A stretch of 64,000 nt of DNA, from IMG/VR virus record IMGVR_UViG_3300007609_000008, positions 61,422-125,421 of that record. One strand, written 5' to 3'. This document shows, one piece after another, positions 10 through 61,573 of the stretch. Numbering within the stretch: position 1 is the stretch's first letter; each line of letters opens with the position of its first letter. A program made the position numbers and the translations under genes. The DNA is from a virus. Below the pieces are notes generated by a model. It was not told the DNA's origin and did not search any database. It saw only the letters and a program-made list of their open reading frames with translations.

Positions 10-759
10 ATGCCAAAGAAGAATCTTCAGTTAGTACAAAACGAAAAAAATGAAAGACGCCCCTCAAACAGTCTCAAGATTACTCTTGACGACATGATTA
101 CGATTTCAGCAAAGACCGAAAATCAAGGCCAGTTTATGTCCCAATACAGACATAACCCGGCCTTTTTATTGCATGGCTGTGCTGGAACGGGAAAAACTTT
201 CATTGCCTTATATCGTGCGTTAGAAGAAGTGTTAGATAAACAAAACGGTTATGGTAAAGTAGTTGTTGTGCGATCCGCAGTACCTAGCAGAGACATTGGT
301 CACTTACCTGGAAGCGAGGAGGAGAAAACAGAAGTTTACAGTGCGCCTTATCAATCTATGTGTCAGGAATTTTTTCCCACAAAAGATAAGCCGTATCAAC
401 GATTAGTGGAGCAGAAACATTTAGAGTTTATGTGTACATCTTATGTAAGAGGCATTACATTAGACCACGCAATCGTTATTGTTGATGAGTGTCAGAACTT
501 GAATGACATGGAACTTAATAGTATAATGACACGAGTAGGCGTTAATACAAAGATTATTTTTTGCGGAGACTTCCGACAAACAGATTTGTCTAAACGCTAC
601 GATATGTCAGGCATGCGTCAGTTTATGATTACAACCGAAGCTATGCCGTCATTCTGCTCAGTTGAGTTTGGCCCGGAAGATATTGTCAGATCCGAGCTAG
701 TCAAAGAGTATATCTTAGCCAGAATGCAGTATGAGGACGACTATGGCGTAAGTATCTGA
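10..759 (+). CDS. phoH: PhoH-like ATPase
   Basis: Walker A GCAGTGKT, VVVRSAVP..IGHLPG, YVRGITLD..IIVDECQN and GDFRQTDL motifs of the PhoH family. Confidence 0.95.
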   Translation: MPKKNLQLVQNEKNERRPSNSLKITLDDMITISAKTENQGQFMSQYRHNPAFLLHGCAGTGKTFIALYRALEEVLDKQNGYGKVVVVRSAVPSRDIGHLPGSEEEKTEVYSAPYQSMCQEFFPTKDKPYQRLVEQKHLEFMCTSYVRGITLDHAIVIVDECQNLNDMELNSIMTRVGVNTKIIFCGDFRQTDLSKRYDMSGMRQFMITTEAMPSFCSVEFGPEDIVRSELVKEYILARMQYEDDYGVSI

Positions 760-10976: not shown

Positions 10977-10984
10977 TATTTATA
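10977..10984 (-). promoter_or_regulatory. late promoter TATAAATA for gp2
   Basis: Exact consensus on minus strand just upstream of the ATG. Confidence 0.75.
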
Positions 10985-11451: not shown

Positions 11452-11483
11452 TATAAATAAATAAAAATAATACACTATTTATC
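11452..11483. promoter_or_regulatory. divergent late promoters: TATAAATA (+, 11452-11459) and GATAAATA (-, 11476-11483)
   Basis: Located between divergent gp4 and ORF 11501. Confidence 0.7.
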
Positions 11484-11500: not shown

Positions 11501-12028
11501 ATGGCCACTATAGTTACAAGAGCGAGTCTTCCAAGAGCCCTTACCACTGAGGAAATGGATGCTAACTTTACTAATTTGAATGATGAACTGGCAGCAGTCG
11601 ATTCTGCTGGTAAACTTGATGCAGCAGACGGCACTGCAACAGGAACATTGACCGCAGAAGATATCGTTGCAGATAATGTGACTGCTGATCTTAAAGGCTA
11701 CGGCGAAGCAATGCTGACTACTAGCTCCGCTTCAGGTGCAATCAGTCTAGATTTATCTGCTGCTAATATATTTAAACTAGAATTGGCCGGAGATGTCACT
11801 GTAACATTTACAAATCCTCCTGAAGCAGGTTCTACTTCTGTAGCAACAATTATCGCAATTCAAGATGGCTCTGGTGGACACTCAATTACATGGACAGATG
11901 GAATTTTTGCAGGCGGCGTTGCTCCTCCTGATTCTACAGGAGCAAACGAAGTCGATATATGGACTGCTTTCACATATGATCAAGGCACTTCATATGTGGT
12001 TTCTTTATCGATGAAGGATGTTAGCTAA
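11501..12028 (+). CDS. virion structural / fibre adaptor protein, paralog of 36727
   Basis: MATI..R...LT.EE.DANFTNLNDE N-terminus, beta-rich C-domain, late promoter. Confidence 0.6.
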   Translation: MATIVTRASLPRALTTEEMDANFTNLNDELAAVDSAGKLDAADGTATGTLTAEDIVADNVTADLKGYGEAMLTTSSASGAISLDLSAANIFKLELAGDVTVTFTNPPEAGSTSVATIIAIQDGSGGHSITWTDGIFAGGVAPPDSTGANEVDIWTAFTYDQGTSYVVSLSMKDVS

Positions 12029-13593
12029 TGCCAATTGGTAAGTTTGGATTAGAAAAAACCTGGAGAGCTAGTGGTACTGGTACTACTACTGTTAATACTT
12101 CTGGTAATTTTGATGTGCCATTCGGAAAACATGATATCACAGTAGAGGGTAAAGGTGGCTCAGGTACTGCCGCTGTTCCCTCTAACGTTGCATCTTATAA
12201 TGCCCCAACACCGGGCAACGTAGCGTCTTATAATGCCCCAACACCGGGCAACGTAGCGTCTTATAATGCAGAGTCTGGTGGTAACGTTGCTACTTACAAT
12301 TCAGAAGTAGCCGGCAATCCTGCAACTTACAATCCTGAGTCAGGTGGAAATGCTGCAACTTACAATGCTGACACGCCTGGTAACCCAGCAACTTACAATC
12401 CTGAAACGCCTGGTAACCCAGCAACATACAATGCTATAACTTACAATGCACCGACTTTTGAGCCTGGAAATGAGTCTGGTGGCGGCAATGTAGCGTCATT
12501 TAATTTAGCATTCTTTAGTCCAGGAAATCCGACTTATAATTCAATAAGTTACAATGCACCGACTTTTGAACCTGGCAATGTGTCTGGTGGTGGTAATGTT
12601 TCTGGTGGTGGTGATGTTGCATTTAGTAATCCACCTACGTACAATGCTGTAACGTATAATGCACCATCGTTCGAACCTGGCAATGTGTCTGGTGGTGGTA
12701 ATGTAGCGTCTTATAACTCTCCTACTAACACTCCGGGCAATGCGGCATCGTATAATGCACCATTGTTTGTTCCGGAGATTATATATGGCCCAGGATCTGG
12801 AATACCAAACGATCCATCAGTATATGAGCCTGGTAATCCGACAAGTTATAATCCACCAACATCAACACCTGGCAACCCAGCATCATACAATCCTATAACG
12901 TATAATGCACCATCGGTAACACCTGGTAACGTATCTGGTGGTGGTAATGTTGATTCGCCTGGGACAACAAACTACACTCCGACAACTTATAATCCAATAA
13001 CATATAATGCACCTAGCGTAGTGCCTGGCAACCAAGTAGGCGGAAATTTTGCTGGAAACAATTCAGGAACCTTTTCCCCAAGCAATCCAGCAACGTACAA
13101 TCCTATAACTTATAATGCACCATCGATAGAGCCTGGTAACGTATCTGGTGGTGGTAATGTTGCGTCAAATAATTCTCCTACTCCAGGTACTGTTGCAACT
13201 TATAACTCACCAATAGCTGGAAATGTGGCATCATATAACCCACCTACCGGAGGGAATGTAGCGACATATAATACAGGAGCGAGTAGTAATCCTGCGACAT
13301 ATAACCCAGAGATACCAGGAAATCCTGCTACATATAATGCAGAGGTAACAGGAAATCCTGCAACTTACAATGCGCCTGATGGTGGAAACATAGCGACATA
13401 CAACGCTGCTCAGCCAGCTGTACCTGGAGAACCAGCAACTGCTATGGGAGTAACTTTACCTGGATCTAATGTCGGAGGAACAGATGCTCCGTTCACTCCT
13501 CCACAAAAAGTATCTTATTATGACTATCCAGATTCAGAAACATATCCAGTTACTGTGCCTGATGGAGGCAATGTAGTCATAAAAAGTAATTGA
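12028..13593 (+). CDS. Pro/Asn/Tyr-rich repeat protein, putative virion fibre or decoration
   Basis: About 29 [ST]YN motifs in 11-aa and longer repeats between short globular termini. Confidence 0.65.
   Translation: MPIGKFGLEKTWRASGTGTTTVNTSGNFDVPFGKHDITVEGKGGSGTAAVPSNVASYNAPTPGNVASYNAPTPGNVASYNAESGGNVATYNSEVAGNPATYNPESGGNAATYNADTPGNPATYNPETPGNPATYNAITYNAPTFEPGNESGGGNVASFNLAFFSPGNPTYNSISYNAPTFEPGNVSGGGNVSGGGDVAFSNPPTYNAVTYNAPSFEPGNVSGGGNVASYNSPTNTPGNAASYNAPLFVPEIIYGPGSGIPNDPSVYEPGNPTSYNPPTSTPGNPASYNPITYNAPSVTPGNVSGGGNVDSPGTTNYTPTTYNPITYNAPSVVPGNQVGGNFAGNNSGTFSPSNPATYNPITYNAPSIEPGNVSGGGNVASNNSPTPGTVATYNSPIAGNVASYNPPTGGNVATYNTGASSNPATYNPEIPGNPATYNAEVTGNPATYNAPDGGNIATYNAAQPAVPGEPATAMGVTLPGSNVGGTDAPFTPPQKVSYYDYPDSETYPVTVPDGGNVVIKSN
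12193..12269 (+). repeat. 33-bp perfect tandem repeat (2.3 copies) within the repeat protein
   Basis: TCTTATAATGCCCCAACACCGGGCAACGTAGCG at 12193 and 12226, partial copy at 12259. Confidence 0.95.
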
Positions 13594-13618
13594 CAATTAA
13601 CTAAATATGTTATAGAAT
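13590..13618 (+). promoter_or_regulatory. sigma70-like promoter for the oxygenase/GT cluster
   Basis: TTGACA, 17 nt, TAGAAT. Confidence 0.6.
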
Positions 13619-13644
13619 TGTATATTATTTAAAAGTGAAAAATT

Positions 13645-14235
13645 ATGACTGCAATAAACAAGTATGTTGGTGAGTTACAGTGTTACGCTCACATGAATCG
13701 AGCTTTCACAGAAGAAGAAGTCGAAAAAATTCGAGAAATCGAAGAGCTTCAATCATTTCAAAAAGGCACAGTTGGTGGCAAACTAACTGGTGCTGCATTA
13801 AAAAAAGCCAGAGATTCTGACGTATTCTTTATGGACCATGACGATAATACGGATTGGTTATATCAAAGAATGTCTTATCTAATAGCACAAGCTAATAAAG
13901 ACCACTTTTTATATAATGTAGATGATTTTGGTCCAATGCAGTATACTAAATATCAGATAGATGGTCATTATACATGGCACTGGGATGTTTTCTTTGGCTG
14001 GCAGAAAAACACAAGAAAAATATCAGTTGTAGTATTTCTCAACGAACCTGAAGATTATGAAGGCGGAGAATTTGAAATAGTCACTAATGGAAATCTAGAT
14101 GAAATCAAACAGTTAAAGCCTTTGAAGGGCGATGTATTGTTTTTTGCATCTTGGATGCCACATCGAGTTTTGCCTGTAACTTCAGGCGAAAGAAATACAC
14201 TTGTTACTTGGGTAACTGGTCCTAGAGAATCGTAA
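13645..14235 (+). CDS. 2OG-Fe(II) oxygenase, prolyl 4-hydroxylase-like
   Basis: HWD..., RKISVVVFLN...YEGGEF, HRVLPVTSGER: HxD...H triad plus Arg. Confidence 0.92.
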   Translation: MTAINKYVGELQCYAHMNRAFTEEEVEKIREIEELQSFQKGTVGGKLTGAALKKARDSDVFFMDHDDNTDWLYQRMSYLIAQANKDHFLYNVDDFGPMQYTKYQIDGHYTWHWDVFFGWQKNTRKISVVVFLNEPEDYEGGEFEIVTNGNLDEIKQLKPLKGDVLFFASWMPHRVLPVTSGERNTLVTWVTGPRES

Positions 14236-14963
14236 TGTTTAATTTTTTGAAAAGAAAAGAAAAGCCAATAATTGAATTTTATTGTCATCCAAATGTTGAG
14301 GGTACTATTCCAACTCCTAGGCCAGCGAGCAAACATGTACCAGACTGGTTTAAAAGTATACCACCTACAATGCCTGGGCGTGATGCTAGAAATAGAAAAG
14401 GACTCACTGCAAAAAAATGTATGCCAATGCTGGATGCAATGACACTAGGTTATGTTATACCTCTGTGCGGCGATCTTGGACTGAAGTCTTCTGAAGACTG
14501 TAATACAATTGAAGTTTTTAATCCTGATGAGCTTAAATTGGCAGAGTTTCATGACCTCAATCAGTTGGGGCCAAAAGCTCCAGGAATGCCAGCACCACCT
14601 GTAAAATTTATTAATCATTGGGTGATAAAAACAGCACCAGGCTGGAGCACCCTAATAATACCTCTAGTCAATAATAGTCTTGCAAATCCTCACTTTACTT
14701 GTTTAGGAGGTCTAGTAGACACTGACACCTATCCAAAAGAAATCAACTTTCCTGCTGTCTGGCACACTCCTAATTTTGATGGTTTTCTACCTGCAGGCAC
14801 TCCATTGGTTGTAGCTATACCTATAAAAAGATCTTCTGTTCCGAGAGAATGTGTGACTAGACCAATGACGGATAAAGAATTTAAAGACATTGATATCATA
14901 CATCGAAAACAATGTAATAAATTGCATGTGTATACCGATGAATTGAGAGAGAAAAGAAAATAA
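14235..14963 (+). CDS. conserved phage protein of unknown function (CMPMLDAMTLGYVIP type)
   Basis: Paralog of 14963; C..D....GY.IP, G.VDTD, AGTPL..IP motifs. Confidence 0.6.
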   Translation: MFNFLKRKEKPIIEFYCHPNVEGTIPTPRPASKHVPDWFKSIPPTMPGRDARNRKGLTAKKCMPMLDAMTLGYVIPLCGDLGLKSSEDCNTIEVFNPDELKLAEFHDLNQLGPKAPGMPAPPVKFINHWVIKTAPGWSTLIIPLVNNSLANPHFTCLGGLVDTDTYPKEINFPAVWHTPNFDGFLPAGTPLVVAIPIKRSSVPRECVTRPMTDKEFKDIDIIHRKQCNKLHVYTDELREKRK

Positions 14964-15685
14964 TGTTTTCAATATTTAAGAAAGAAAAAGATATCGAGTT
15001 TGTAGACGTAACTAGAAATGCGTATTTAGATTTTCCTGTTATGATGGCTAAAGATGTTCCTGTGCTAGGAAAAGACGAAAGAATAGAGAAGTTTGGAGTA
15101 AATAAATTTGTACATTGTCCTGGTATGGTAGATTATGCTAAACTAGGTTACGTAATACCTGCTTGGTGCGATATGCGAATTAAAGCAAATAAAGCAGGAG
15201 TAGTGGCTACTATTGGAGACAACAGAAGAGGCACAAGAGGATTTCATTTACCTAAAAAAATGGATCAAACTATTGTCGATGGAATAATAGAACCAGAAGA
15301 CGGTGTTCCCTTGACAGTTCTTCATATAGGCGCCCCTTGGAATATTTTTGTAAATAAAAATATATCTGCATTACTGATGCCTGCAGTTTATCATTCGAAG
15401 GTTTTTGATGATTTACATGTCTGGCCAGGAGTAGTTGATTACAAAAATTTTACTACTGCTAATTTAATTTGTACTCCGAAGCGCAAGTGTGAATTTACAA
15501 TTAAAGCAGGCGAGCCACTCATACATGTGATACCTTTTCTAAATACTCATTTAGAAGCTGGATATGGTCCAGGAACTGAACAACAGGTAGATAAGAGTAG
15601 AAATACTATACTAGGAGGAGACAGTCAATATTACAGAAAGTTTCTTTCTGTAAAAAAAATATTTAGACTGGAAAAAGAAGAATGA
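14963..15685 (+). CDS. conserved phage protein of unknown function (CPGMVDYAKLGYVIP type)
   Basis: Same motif set as 14235 and the same MF...K.K..IEF start. Confidence 0.6.
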   Translation: MFSIFKKEKDIEFVDVTRNAYLDFPVMMAKDVPVLGKDERIEKFGVNKFVHCPGMVDYAKLGYVIPAWCDMRIKANKAGVVATIGDNRRGTRGFHLPKKMDQTIVDGIIEPEDGVPLTVLHIGAPWNIFVNKNISALLMPAVYHSKVFDDLHVWPGVVDYKNFTTANLICTPKRKCEFTIKAGEPLIHVIPFLNTHLEAGYGPGTEQQVDKSRNTILGGDSQYYRKFLSVKKIFRLEKEE

Positions 15686-16632
15686 AAATATTTGTTAGCA
15701 TAGTATCTTTTAGAGATCCCTTATTAAAATACACTGTTAAAAGCCTGTTAGAAGAACAGTCAGGCGACAATGAAATTATAATAGGCATATTCGAACAGAC
15801 AAAATTAGAAGACAGTCTTGTTACTATCGATAAAGAGCTAACAGAGAAGCATAATATTAGATATAAGCGAATTGATCCTGAGTATGCAGCAGGAGTAGTT
15901 TGGGCCAGAAAAATAAATGCAACTCAAATTGAAGATGAAGACTTCTTCTATCAAGTAGATTCACACATTCTATACGATAGAAACTGGGACAGATACTTGT
16001 TGCAAGATTGGGAACTCGCTAGACAAAAAGCAGAAAGTAGTAGAGTAATTTTGACTGCGGCATGTTATATTTACACGCTCGATGAGGACGGCATTCCTAA
16101 TAAAGTAACACATAAAGATAATCCATACACCACTTCTTCTAAGTATTTTACTTTCCAAAGACACAATAGATTACCTGCTGCTCATGGTGAATGGATACCT
16201 AAGACTGATGAGGTCATGCCAGCAATTCATATTTTTGCAGGCAATTTTTTTGCTCCTGTAAAGTGGGTTGATGATGTAGGGTATGACGCTAGAATATTCT
16301 TCGAAGGCGAAGAGCAATATATGGTATTAAAATCTTTCATACAAGGTTGGAATTTATATCATTCACGAGAAATGCATTGTTATCATTATGCAGAAGCGCA
16401 CAATCACGTAACAAAGCACTGGATAGATCCTGTTTCAAACAATTACACTACCATGATGGCAAAGGGACTCTTGTATTGGAAGAAATTTTTAGAGAGCATA
16501 TCCGAAGAAGACTTAAAAAAATATTATGAATATTCTGGTGTTGATTATATAAATGGTATAATTGAAGAAAGAGCATTCACCCGCCAAATCATAGATCCTA
16601 ACGCAACTGGTACTCCAGACTCAGAAGACTAG
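15682..16632 (+). CDS. GT60 / Skp1-hydroxyproline GlcNAc-transferase (Gnt1)-like glycosyltransferase
   Basis: IFVSIVSFRD, GIFEQ, G..WAR, QVDSH..YD.NWD, AGNFF, FEGEE match the Gnt1-family motif order as recalled. Confidence 0.82.
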   Translation: MKIFVSIVSFRDPLLKYTVKSLLEEQSGDNEIIIGIFEQTKLEDSLVTIDKELTEKHNIRYKRIDPEYAAGVVWARKINATQIEDEDFFYQVDSHILYDRNWDRYLLQDWELARQKAESSRVILTAACYIYTLDEDGIPNKVTHKDNPYTTSSKYFTFQRHNRLPAAHGEWIPKTDEVMPAIHIFAGNFFAPVKWVDDVGYDARIFFEGEEQYMVLKSFIQGWNLYHSREMHCYHYAEAHNHVTKHWIDPVSNNYTTMMAKGLLYWKKFLESISEEDLKKYYEYSGVDYINGIIEERAFTRQIIDPNATGTPDSED

Positions 16633-16651: not shown

Positions 16652-16659
16652 TATAAATA
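16652..16659 (+). promoter_or_regulatory. late promoter TATAAATA for gp48
   Basis: Exact consensus. Confidence 0.8.
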
Positions 16660-60412: not shown

Positions 60413-61573
60413 ATGGGTGTAGAATCCAAAATCCGAGAGCTTATGGAAGGCGCTGCAAATCGCCCCAAAGATAAGCAACAAGGTGACGCTTCTAATCCTA
60501 CTCAAGGAGATTCAAACGCTAATCCCGAAATGCAAGACCTTAGTGGTACTGGCAACAAGGAAGGCGGATTGACTTCACCTGTAGGCAAAGCGGCTTCAGG
60601 CAAAGAATCTAAAGACACTACTCTTCCTAAGGGAGCTGGTGCTAAAGAGGCTCCTGCTAACTTCGAGAACGACAAGCCATCTGAGACTGACGTAATGAAA
60701 AAAGCATCAGCCGGTAACGTTGCTAAAGAAGACGTTGACGTAGATGACGAAGTTATTGCCGAAGACGAAGTAGTCGAAGAAGATGCAATCGTTGAAGACG
60801 AAGAAGTATCAGAAGAAGATGCGATCACTGAAGAAGAAGCACTAGAAGAAGCTGCTCTTTTCGAAGCTGATCTGTCTGCACTCTTTGCTGACGAAGAGCA
60901 TCTCACAGAAGAATTTAAAGTAAAAGCAGCCGAAGTATTTGAAGCTGTTGTTACATCACGAGTTAGTGCTGAAATTGCACAAATTGAAGAAGAGCTTACT
61001 GAGGCAGCAAACGTAGAGTTTGAGTCACAGTTGGAGCAAATGGTAGAAAACATTGATAAGTATCTTTCTTATGTTACAGAAAACTGGATGACTGAAAATC
61101 AAATCGCTGTCGAAAGCGGTATTCGTACAGAAGTAACTGAGTCATTTATCAAAGGTTTACAGCAAGTATTCTCAGAGCATTACATTGACGTTCCAGAAGA
61201 AAAGTATGATGTAATGACTGAAATGCAAAGTCAAATTGATGAGCTTACTGCAAAGCTAGACGAGCAAGTTGAGTCTAATATTGCAATTAAAGAAGAAGCC
61301 ATTATGCTGAAGAAGCAATCAGTGCTTGCTAAGATTTCAGAAGACCTTGCGTCTACTGAAGCAGAAAAGTTTGCCGCATTAGTCGAAGACATTACCTACA
61401 CAGGTATGGATTCATATGAGCAAAAACTTCAAGTCGTTAAAGAAAACTATTTTCCAGCCGAAAAGTCGTTGACTGAAGACAAACTTGAAGACACATTTGA
61501 AGCTACATCAGAAGTAACTAATACAGTTATGTCTAAGTATGCTCAAGCAATTTCAAAAACAGCTAAGTTCTAA
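60413..61573 (+). CDS. gp22: prohead scaffold protein
   Basis: Acidic; L.EEFK.KA..VFEA.V, DKYL.YV...W..EN..A.E.GIR.E..ESF..GL...F.EHY. Confidence 0.95.
   Translation: MGVESKIRELMEGAANRPKDKQQGDASNPTQGDSNANPEMQDLSGTGNKEGGLTSPVGKAASGKESKDTTLPKGAGAKEAPANFENDKPSETDVMKKASAGNVAKEDVDVDDEVIAEDEVVEEDAIVEDEEVSEEDAITEEEALEEAALFEADLSALFADEEHLTEEFKVKAAEVFEAVVTSRVSAEIAQIEEELTEAANVEFESQLEQMVENIDKYLSYVTENWMTENQIAVESGIRTEVTESFIKGLQQVFSEHYIDVPEEKYDVMTEMQSQIDELTAKLDEQVESNIAIKEEAIMLKKQSVLAKISEDLASTEAEKFAALVEDITYTGMDSYEQKLQVVKENYFPAEKSLTEDKLEDTFEATSEVTNTVMSKYAQAISKTAKF

Follow-up and report, generated by a model that had tools for sequence, protein, structure and literature searches.

In the Skp1 pathway of Dictyostelium and Toxoplasma, a prolyl 4-hydroxylase (P4H)-type oxygenase, PhyA, is followed by a soluble glycosyltransferase (GT) of the PF11397/GT60 family, Gnt1 (PMC6939170). 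Enzymes of both types are also encoded in a viral record of 125 kb (IMG/VR, IMGVR_UViG_3300007609_000008, ~76% complete), of which we have analyzed a stretch of 64,000 nucleotides (positions 61,422 to 125,421), here referred to as the window. Six open reading frames (ORFs) on the plus strand, at positions 11501-16632 of the window and delineated as in a first-pass annotation of this DNA, encode a short fiber-like protein (fib175), a repeat protein of 521 amino acids (rep521), a 2-oxoglutarate (2OG)-Fe(II) oxygenase, two DUF6065 paralogs and a GT60-family transferase (Table 1). The block is, in our judgment, probably a late-expressed tailoring cassette for a fiber adhesin of a T4-like phage. 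Like the enzymes of the Skp1 pathway, the phage enzymes are cytoplasmic and lack a lectin domain. Skp1 is modified at one site, however, whereas the candidate substrate in the phage is a repeat protein with many potential sites, and hydroxyproline (Hyp) as the acceptor is putative in the phage. The phage genes are arranged in an operon that also encodes two DUF6065 proteins, for which the Skp1 pathway has no equivalent, none of the extension enzymes PgtA, AgtA and Gat1 of that pathway is present in the phage cassette, and the phage transferase is exchangeable or absent in variants of the cassette, unlike in the Skp1 pathway.

Four other described systems resemble parts of the locus. The polypeptide alpha-N-acetylglucosamine (pp-alpha-GlcNAc) transferases of the protist mucin type, from Trypanosoma cruzi and Dictyostelium, belong to the same Pfam/CAZy family as the phage GT and act on repeat-rich, low-complexity Ser/Thr/Pro mucin domains (PMC8724618). 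They are Golgi membrane proteins that modify secreted mucins, whereas the phage GT is a soluble enzyme of 316 amino acids. The prolyl 4-hydroxylase of chlorovirus PBCV-1 hydroxylates virus-encoded proline-rich repeat peptides. This P4H-type enzyme (PDB 5c5t) is likewise virus-encoded and matches the phage oxygenase weakly (E 0.0057), but its source virus infects a eukaryotic alga, and neither a dedicated substrate gene nor DUF6065 or GT60 is linked to its gene. The adhesin gp38 of Salmonella phage S16 (PDB 6F45), which is located at the tip of the gp37 fiber, has a conserved core, Gly-rich motifs and hypervariable loops that set the host range (PMC6851490). The genes for gp38 and rep521 are both located directly 3' of a fiber gene in a T4-like phage, and the two proteins follow a similar repeat logic; the gp38 repeats are, however, polyglycine repeats that are unmodified and without linked tailoring enzymes, the fold of the rep521 repeats is not confidently modeled, and no sequence or Pfam relation between rep521 and the S16-type gp38 adhesins was detectable. 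Finally, multiple 2OG-Fe(II) oxygenases with an uncertain role, for which DNA repair or modulation of 2OG was proposed, have been described in marine T4-like phages (Sullivan et al., 2010; PMC3037559). Those of the T4-like cyanophages and pelagiphages belong to the same family, phrog_61, and are 35-40% identical to the window oxygenase, but they are mostly scattered among auxiliary genes, whereas the window oxygenase is locked to a candidate protein substrate.

Mycobacteriophages encode glycosyltransferases that add sugars to their capsid and tail proteins, and virion glycosylation in itself would then not be new in phages. What would be new is a system of hydroxylase, DUF6065 and GT60 that is tied to a dedicated adhesin. 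The literature searched yielded no mention of DUF6065, no link of GT60 or Hyp to phage virions and nothing pertinent on PiuC. The remark in the first-pass annotation that such a system is uncharacterized in T4-like phages agrees with our finding of no cultured phage and no paper that describes it.

The main evidence comes from the conservation of gene order. Loci were gathered by pattern-seeded searches, and many of them are related, so that the counts do not represent independent events. With the GT as query, 80 viral loci were recovered, of which 58 contained the oxygenase and both DUF6065 genes and three more contained part of this set; these 61 loci extend down to a GT identity of 35%. Of the 19 loci that lack the set, two are truncated by the end of the contig, and in the other 17 the GT is at most 37% identical. 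With the C-terminal domain of the repeat protein as query, the oxygenase gene was located directly downstream of the repeat gene in all 52 loci, and it was accompanied by both DUF6065 genes in 51 of them. The recurrent synteny of P4H, GT60 and repeat protein, which had been suggested as a check, was thus recovered from both directions. In total, the repeat gene, the oxygenase gene and the two DUF6065 genes have been inherited as a set in over 100 loci, which come from contigs of uncultured phages and differ in genomic position. Baseplate genes adjoin the cassette in no loci but the four closest relatives (L001-L004), and its neighbors in other loci are genes for a neck protein, tail assembly chaperones or collagen-like fibers. 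Judging from these gene orders, the cassette moves as a unit, the composition of which is kept while the genomic neighborhood changes. In seven loci, the order is second oxygenase paralog, GT, repeat protein, oxygenase, DUF6065 and DUF6065, which places the repeat gene within the enzyme set. rep521 is probably the substrate of the cassette enzymes, and it is the most likely one, since the genes are constantly associated, the repeat gene can lie embedded between those for the enzymes and the operon is a late one. With the set present in more than 100 phage contigs, chemical decoration by the phage of its own host-binding appendage is probable.

The constant core of the cassette consists of the repeat protein, the oxygenase and the two DUF6065 proteins, and the GT is exchangeable. 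One locus (L006:7980-9551) encodes a fusion in which the GT60 domain is followed at the C terminus by a class I S-adenosylmethionine (SAM) methyltransferase domain, and four further fusions of this kind were identified among metagenomic homologs (P0062, P0071, P0079, P0086). In L094, L095 and L097 there is no GT, and a gene for a PF03567 sulfotransferase is located between the oxygenase and DUF6065 genes (for L095:7848-8471, E 3.2e-05 and 24.6 bits, cut-off 22). The cassettes of L141-L144 contain no transferase at all. Since the GT is missing or replaced in some variants, hydroxylation would not exist solely to serve glycosylation. The repeat protein of the sulfotransferase variant has mostly Phe-Asn instead of Tyr-Asn, along with a very regular T-P-G-N-P motif. 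Tyr was considered as a common acceptor, for O-sulfation or O-glycosylation, and was rejected, as the predominance of Phe-Asn in this variant argues against it. In a 108-kb phage contig, a protein of 2,470 amino acids with an alanine-zipper segment (PF11839, 3e-23) is encoded directly 3' of the cassette (L029:9306-16718).

The oxygenase scored 70.7 bits against PF13640 (cut-off 27), a search of the genome with this family gave an identical outcome, and the protein was assigned to phrog_61 with an E-value of 5.9e-37. Its iron/2OG site, HxD...H...R, is complete (H112-W-D114, H173, R183), which agrees with the HWD..H..R motif read in the first-pass annotation. Among 58 cassette homologs, H112, D114 and R183 are conserved in 95% or more and H173 in 53; the five homologs without H173 correspond to the second paralog beside the GT. 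Models of the PRK05467 type in NCBIfam matched the full length of the protein, with scores below the equivalog cut-offs. By sequence, the oxygenase is a member of the prolyl-hydroxylase-type superfamily. The matches to PDB up to an E-value of 0.3 were prolyl 4-hydroxylases, except for PiuC proteins and four very weak rows for NAD-dependent DNA ligases (E 0.29-0.31). One PDB entry, 4iw3, was deposited as an uncharacterized protein, which we take to be a Pseudomonas prolyl hydroxylase. Enzymes of this family act on Pro or Lys; with few or no Lys residues in the repeats, hydroxylation most likely targets Pro. No Lys was found in the repeats of 19 of 26 family members (the window protein and 18 of 25 relatives), and the other seven have 2 to 5 Lys residues; hydroxylation of Lys was rejected on these counts.

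The second oxygenase paralog is encoded directly 5' of the GT in the rearranged cassettes (L012:7438-7992; also L024, L026, L038, L040, L065). It keeps HxD and Arg, with the distal iron-binding His replaced by Ser or Ala. It is probably inactive because this His is lost, and it may be an inactive adaptor for the GT.

The GT matched the PF11397 profile, named "GlcNAc," with an E-value of 1.2e-26 and 94.5 bits (cut-off 21), with residues 52-250 aligned to positions 92-284 of 352, and the family was carried by 120/120 GT homologs listed. This places the protein in GT60, as had been proposed. The motifs IFVSI.S.RD, DSH and GEE, from which that proposal was made, were retained as invariant residues in 27 homologs of 44-76% identity (I3, F4, V5, S9, R11 and D12; D93, S94 and H95; G209, E210 and E211). 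A D-x-H metal-binding motif, as in the related GT27 enzymes, defines the GT60 family. The GT has a motif of this type in D93-S94-H95. No GT60 structure was found when the GT profile was compared to the PDB sequences, and a search of 50,697 cultured-phage records identified only two Xanthomonas jumbo phages with proteins of 23% identity. Nine homologs of 24-43% identity were found in bacteria, without the cassette but for one 4-kb contig binned as Chitinophagaceae, which looks phage-derived.

The family assignment bears directly on the chemistry. PF11397/GT60 holds the Hyp-specific Gnt1 of the Skp1 pathway as well as the Ser/Thr-directed polypeptide alpha-GlcNAc transferases (PMC6939170, PMC8724618). 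In a strict Skp1-like model, a prolyl 4-hydroxylase and a Gnt1-type GT60 that accepts only Hyp would produce Hyp-O-GlcNAc at each site. Such a model draws on the pairing of PF13640 and PF11397, which parallels that of PhyA and Gnt1 (PMC6939170), on the adjacent oxygenase paralog that the GT has of its own in the seven rearranged loci, and on the sulfotransferase of other variants, which also requires a hydroxyl acceptor. However, GT60 includes enzymes directed to Ser and Thr, the GT-adjacent oxygenase paralog lacks the distal iron-binding His and is probably inactive, and there are cassettes that keep the oxygenase and have no GT.

In the rep521 gene, Tandem Repeats Finder (TRF) identified arrays with a period of 33 bp (11 amino acids). 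When cut after Tyr/Phe-Asn, the protein yields 31 units, which are mostly 11-mers of the form x-x-x-(P/G)-G-N-(V/P)-A-(S/T)-Y-N. The layout is mirrored, with outer 11-mer arrays (residues 59-135 and 394-459), longer inner units and a central non-repeat stretch. The first-pass annotation described a Pro-rich repeat protein: the repeats are real, but Asn (74 of 521 residues) and Gly (71) equal Pro (71). Neither a Pfam nor a PHROG family matched rep521 or any of nine relatives. The ends are the conserved part of the protein, with an identity to the window protein across the family of 32-65% for the N-terminal ~55 residues and 36-54% for the C-terminal ~70 residues, even across loci in which the GT is merely 35-50% identical. 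The repeats in between are hypervariable, with units that are 4 to 23 residues long and differ in sequence and number. The sole constant is the aromatic-Asn pair that closes each unit. Tyr-Asn occurs 29 times in rep521, as compared to 5.4 expected, and at 2 to 9 times the expectation in 26/26 proteins examined, while the residue before Tyr varies across the family (S, T, N or G). Pro accounts for 8-20% of the repeats across the family, and X-Pro-Gly is enriched in about half of its members (PG 18 versus 7.8 expected in the window protein), which speaks for the strict Skp1-like model. On the other side, Ser or Thr is present in 30 of the 31 rep521 units and Pro has no fixed position in the repeats. 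Strict Hyp-O-GlcNAc modification is thus possible although on the unlikely side, and it is not favored over a mucin-type reading.

Four members of the repeat family (L036:4672-5841, L045:4830-5891, L049:4994-5833, L009:4683-5855) have a central non-repeat segment of ~80-110 residues between mirrored repeat arms. It is rich in aromatic residues and Cys, and it looks like a distal tip domain. The only significant match of the rep521 model among viral structures was to BFVD A0A516KZD8 (E 1e-05), a protein of 503 amino acids with 21% identity over its full length, which may belong to the family and derive from a deposited phage genome.

According to the AlphaFold2 (AF2) model, residues 11-55 and 455-521 of rep521 form beta strands. 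The block means of the predicted local distance difference test (pLDDT) are 70-96 for residues 11-50 and 88-96 for residues 21-50 at the N-terminal end, and 84-97 for residues 461-521 and 68 for residues 451-460 at the C-terminal end; over residues 21-50 and 461-510 taken together they are 88-97. The two conserved ends are predicted with high confidence to form one beta-sandwich, and as they lie in one predicted domain, the repeat loop would project from that domain. In a trimmed model of the end domain, single-domain beta-sandwich chains aligned over 74-95 residues across the model range 11..521; these fold matches were weak, with Z of 5.6 or less, and represent generic beta-sandwiches (TNF/C1q-like, phage tail-tip and baseplate domains). 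The gene context suggests that rep521 is a protein of the virion surface. The gene for fib175, the C-terminal domain of which is common to phage tail fiber proteins, has homologs 5' of the repeat gene in most related loci, and its stop codon overlaps the start codon of rep521 (TAATG).

Other identities were considered for rep521 and its surroundings. Weak leads pointed to a glycine-rich domain (PF21722), with an ESM feature score of 0.78 and Foldseek matches in BFVD with E-values of 0.2-3 over ~40 N-terminal residues; this domain was rejected as there was no Pfam match even at E up to 5. A precursor similar to those of ribosomally synthesized and post-translationally modified peptides (RiPPs) was judged unlikely because the ends fold together, in the model, as a structural domain. 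A collagen-like tail fiber was rejected as the substrate of the hydroxylase, the window being without any run of at least 5 G-X-Y triplets; collagen-like fibers adjoin the cassette in L012 and L041.

Another explanation holds that two independent modifications take place, with a mucin-type GT60 acting on Ser/Thr while the oxygenase and DUF6065 hydroxylate the protein to stabilize a polyproline-II (PPII)-like stalk, as in collagen. The protist GT60 enzymes that act on Ser/Thr-rich mucin domains (PMC8724618) provide a precedent for the first activity, and the second agrees with the cassettes in which the constant core persists without any transferase. The repeats are rich in Pro, Gly and Asn and modeled without regular secondary structure, and S16 gp38 shows that fiber-tip adhesins can be built from polyglycine-II (PGII)/PPII-type helices with variable loops (PMC6851490). 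Yet Ser/Thr occupies no constant position in the repeats across the family and PPII helices in the repeats are hypothetical, and we regard this explanation as rather unlikely.

The two DUF6065 proteins were described in the first-pass annotation as paralogs of unknown family. They are indeed paralogous, with 22% identity to each other, and both match phrog_7084. Neither matched Pfam at E up to 0.1; they are placed in DUF6065 by way of homologs of 55-65% identity that are annotated as PF19541 (DUF6065), and the homolog in Halophage HF1 scored 23.6 bits against the DUF6065 model (cut-off 26.6). The AlphaFold model of paralog A (pLDDT 81.5) has a dUTPase/dCTP-deaminase fold. In a VIA search of this model against 48,161 chains, the top 22 chains, with Z of 10.1 to 5.8 and the next at 4.6, were dUTPases, dCTP deaminases or viral dUTPase-related proteins, and Foldseek agreed on a dUTPase-like fold (best 2e-4). 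No match was obtained for the DUF6065 profile among the PDB sequences. Residues E14, K33, C62, D/E67, H106, W129, S138 and G188-x-P190 are kept in paralogs A and B, in HF1 and in a cyanophage homolog, and a motif-III-like V-D-T-D-x-Y is present in paralog A and HF1 and altered in paralog B and cyanophage Sf-CH8. The DUF6065 pair is linked to the oxygenase and the candidate substrate more closely than the GT; its fold has been assigned by model.

Homologs of DUF6065 with 30-36% identity are found as single copies in haloarchaeal tailed viruses of the HF1/HF2 type (HF1 and ~48 other records). The halovirus gene is located between a ribonucleotide reductase gene and tail genes, and the family spans host domains. 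The cassette was also sought in cyanophage Sf-CH8 and rejected there, the genes beside its DUF6065 homolog being neither an oxygenase nor a second DUF6065.

The fold of DUF6065 raises the alternative of a nucleotide or DNA modification module, in which the dUTPase-fold proteins would cooperate with the oxygenase and the GT to produce a base that is hypermodified and glycosylated. In HF1, the homolog (L090; AY190604.2, 48119-49003; 34% identity) adjoins genes for ribonucleotide reductase and a DNA methylase, and phages are known to glycosylate hydroxylated bases (PMC13326640). As far as we know, in part from the same source, the known pathways nevertheless use thymidylate-synthase homologs or TET/JBP oxygenases rather than PF13640 (PMC13326640). 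Moreover, PF11397 is a family of protein-glycosylating enzymes, a search of the genome with PF00692 (dUTPase), DUF6065 genes included, found nothing, and the motif-III-like Asp residues are not kept across DUF6065. We consider a role in DNA modification very improbable.

The source phage is a divergent, uncultured T4-like myovirus. Among cultured phages it is closest to cyanophages, Pelagibacter phage HTVC008M and others, with an identity of only ~25% in a conserved tail protein. The block is located at the divergent gp4/gp48 junction within the structural module, with homologs of gp4, gp2, gp3 and gp26 on the minus-strand side (Table 1). The late-promoter octamer TATAAATA, which is of the T4 type, is present in 19 copies in the window as compared to 5.3 expected, and none of 100 shuffles reached 19. 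On the plus strand there are 18 copies, mostly in short gaps 5' of structural genes, and the sole copy on the minus strand (10977-10984) is located just 5' of the minus-strand gp2-like gene. This distribution in the sequence makes it appear that the phage uses T4-type late promoters. Two copies bracket the block, none is located between them, and the junctions along the block are, in gene order, TAATG, a 51-nt gap, TAATG, TAATG and ATGA. The late promoters at both ends and the overlapping stop and start codons argue for one late, translationally coupled transcription unit, in agreement with the operon of the first-pass annotation. A possible sigma-70-type promoter in the 51-nt gap has both hexamers kept in L001 and L003, and the -35 hexamer is also kept in L004. 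Through such a promoter the enzymes may be made earlier in infection than their late substrate.

Table 1. Features of the candidate tailoring block and its surroundings; coordinates are positions in the window
Feature	Position	Strand	Basis or remark
gp4 homolog	upstream of block	-	head closure, phrog_218, 8e-61
gp2 homolog	upstream of block	-	DNA end protector
gp3 homolog	upstream of block	-	tail tube family
gp26 homolog	upstream of block	-	baseplate hub
Late promoter TATAAATA	11452..11459	+	42 nt 5' of fib175 start codon
fib175, short fiber-like protein	11501..12028	+	phrog_9017 2.1e-08, phrog_7760 2.7e-07, both "tail fiber protein"
rep521, candidate substrate and adhesin, 521 aa	12028..13593	+	conserved ends, hypervariable repeat middle
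rep521 N-terminal conserved segment, residues 1-56	12028..12195	+	alignment; predicted beta strands
rep521 repeat region, residues 59-459	12202..13404	+	11-mer arrays, longer inner units, mirrored layout
rep521 C-terminal conserved segment, residues ~451-521	13378..13590	+	alignment; predicted beta strands packing with N-terminal segment
Possible sigma-70-type promoter TTGACA-17-TAGAAT	13590..13618	+	11/12 consensus match only; 51-nt gap between rep521 and oxygenase
2OG-Fe(II) oxygenase, prolyl/lysyl-hydroxylase type	13645..14235	+	PF13640 2.1e-19
DUF6065 paralog A, dUTPase-like fold (model)	14235..14963	+	phrog_7084 4e-46
DUF6065 paralog B	14963..15685	+	phrog_7084 2.9e-21; invariant residues of the family kept
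GT60-family (PF11397) glycosyltransferase, 316 aa, soluble	15682..16632	+	invariant D-S-H
Late promoter TATAAATA	16652..16659	+	just 3' of GT gene, before gp48-like baseplate gene; block end
gp48 homolog	downstream of block	+	baseplate, phrog_230, 2e-49
gp53 homolog	downstream of block	+	PF11246
Tail protein, gp5 (hub and lysozyme) and gp6 (wedge) homologs	downstream of block	+	

The enzymes could also act elsewhere, on another fiber, a host protein such as a translation factor, or the host envelope, and merely ride in a mobile, hypervariable tail-fiber island. Homologs of the oxygenase with 35-40% identity are present in 363 phage records, and marine T4-like phages hold many such genes outside fiber regions; together with the DUF6065 genes that lack a repeat protein in haloviruses and Sf-CH8, and with the possible sigma-70-type promoter 5' of the enzyme genes, this would agree with another target. 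The repeat gene is, however, linked to the oxygenase in 52/52 loci of the reverse search and embedded between enzyme genes in the rearranged loci, and the composition of the module is constant while its neighborhood changes. Both the host-target and the DNA-modification alternatives are weakened by the late promoter that the block has together with structural genes, by its position in the structural module and by the strict linkage with the repeat gene, which DNA modification would leave unexplained, and an action elsewhere seems improbable.

We therefore return to the reading of the block as a tailoring cassette for its own adhesin. In this reading, rep521 would be an adhesin-like appendage protein that works with fib175, and its loop would run out and back around a variable tip. 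The oxygenase would hydroxylate residues of the loop, most likely Pro, and an exchangeable transferase would decorate the hydroxyl; in the window, the GT60 would add an N-acetylhexosamine (HexNAc), probably GlcNAc from UDP-GlcNAc, to the new Hyp or to Ser/Thr. The two dUTPase-fold DUF6065 proteins would be putative obligatory partners of the hydroxylation step. The likely benefit would be a host-recognition surface that is stiffer, protease-resistant or chemically diversified. GT60 enzymes and sulfotransferases both need a hydroxyl acceptor, which fits a sequence of hydroxylation followed by decoration and equally permits Ser or Thr as the acceptor.

Several observations weigh against this reading. 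Pro is without a fixed register relative to the aromatic-Asn pair and is missing from 5 of the 31 repeat units of rep521 and from as many as 10 of 17 units of one relative, and no minimal motif could be defined by which a conserved enzyme would recognize hypervariable repeats. The closest solved relatives of the oxygenase by sequence are the PiuC/YbiX "PKHD-type hydroxylases" of uncharacterized function (~1e-7), and prolyl 4-hydroxylases in PDB match only from 3e-4 and weaker. The repeat loop of ~390 residues was modeled with a pLDDT of ~35 by AF2 and 0.38 by ESM, with no regular secondary structure, and the hairpin architecture that we propose for it is suggested by the symmetry of the sequence alone. 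DUF6065 occurs singly, with no repeat protein nearby, in haloarchaeal viruses and one cyanophage. The linkage could be partly due to common descent of a mobile fiber module. Among the cultured phages of INPHARED (50,697 records), searches with megablast and tblastn for the region, the repeat protein and its C-terminal domain found nothing.

The claim that the phage hydroxylates and glycosylates its own surface protein is partly supported: the enzyme families and their linkage agree with it, and the chemistry of Hyp-GlcNAc is putative. The weak points of the latter are the Ser/Thr-directed enzymes in GT60, the missing register of Pro, the loss or replacement of the GT, the presence of the DUF6065 pair and the virion-surface location of the protein, which is predicted from context. 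Provided that the cassette acts on rep521, Hyp-O-GlcNAc would be the leading product, at somewhat less than an even chance; Ser/Thr-O-GlcNAc with a separate hydroxylation is almost as likely, and some other chemistry is the least likely of the three.

A broader reading can be put forward tentatively, and with less than even confidence, according to which the host-recognition adhesin is subject to modular post-translational tailoring in phages of several T4-like lineages. The fixed core of P4H-type oxygenase and DUF6065 pair would make a modified, probably hydroxylated, residue in the repeat loop, and an interchangeable GT60, GT60-methyltransferase or sulfotransferase would then diversify it. 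The dUTPase-fold DUF6065 pair would in that case represent a new class of enzyme or cofactor.

Host range in tailed phages is commonly attributed to the amino-acid sequences of fibers and adhesins. Should the tailoring cassette act as proposed, hydroxylation of the adhesin along with its glycosylation or sulfation would add a chemical layer to host recognition and protease resistance, and under the modular reading, the chemistry of receptor binding would evolve by the swapping of enzymes as well as by mutation of the adhesin. To our knowledge, glycosylation of Hyp has so far been a eukaryotic trait. The cassette provides an enzyme-substrate set that bears on this modification in the world of viruses and bacteria, and its product would be the first Hyp-linked (or mucin-type) GlcNAc made by a bacterial virus. 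It would also give at least some of the 2OG-Fe(II) oxygenases of marine T4-like phages a concrete function, and it ties DUF6065, a family common to haloarchaeal viruses, to a biochemical context.

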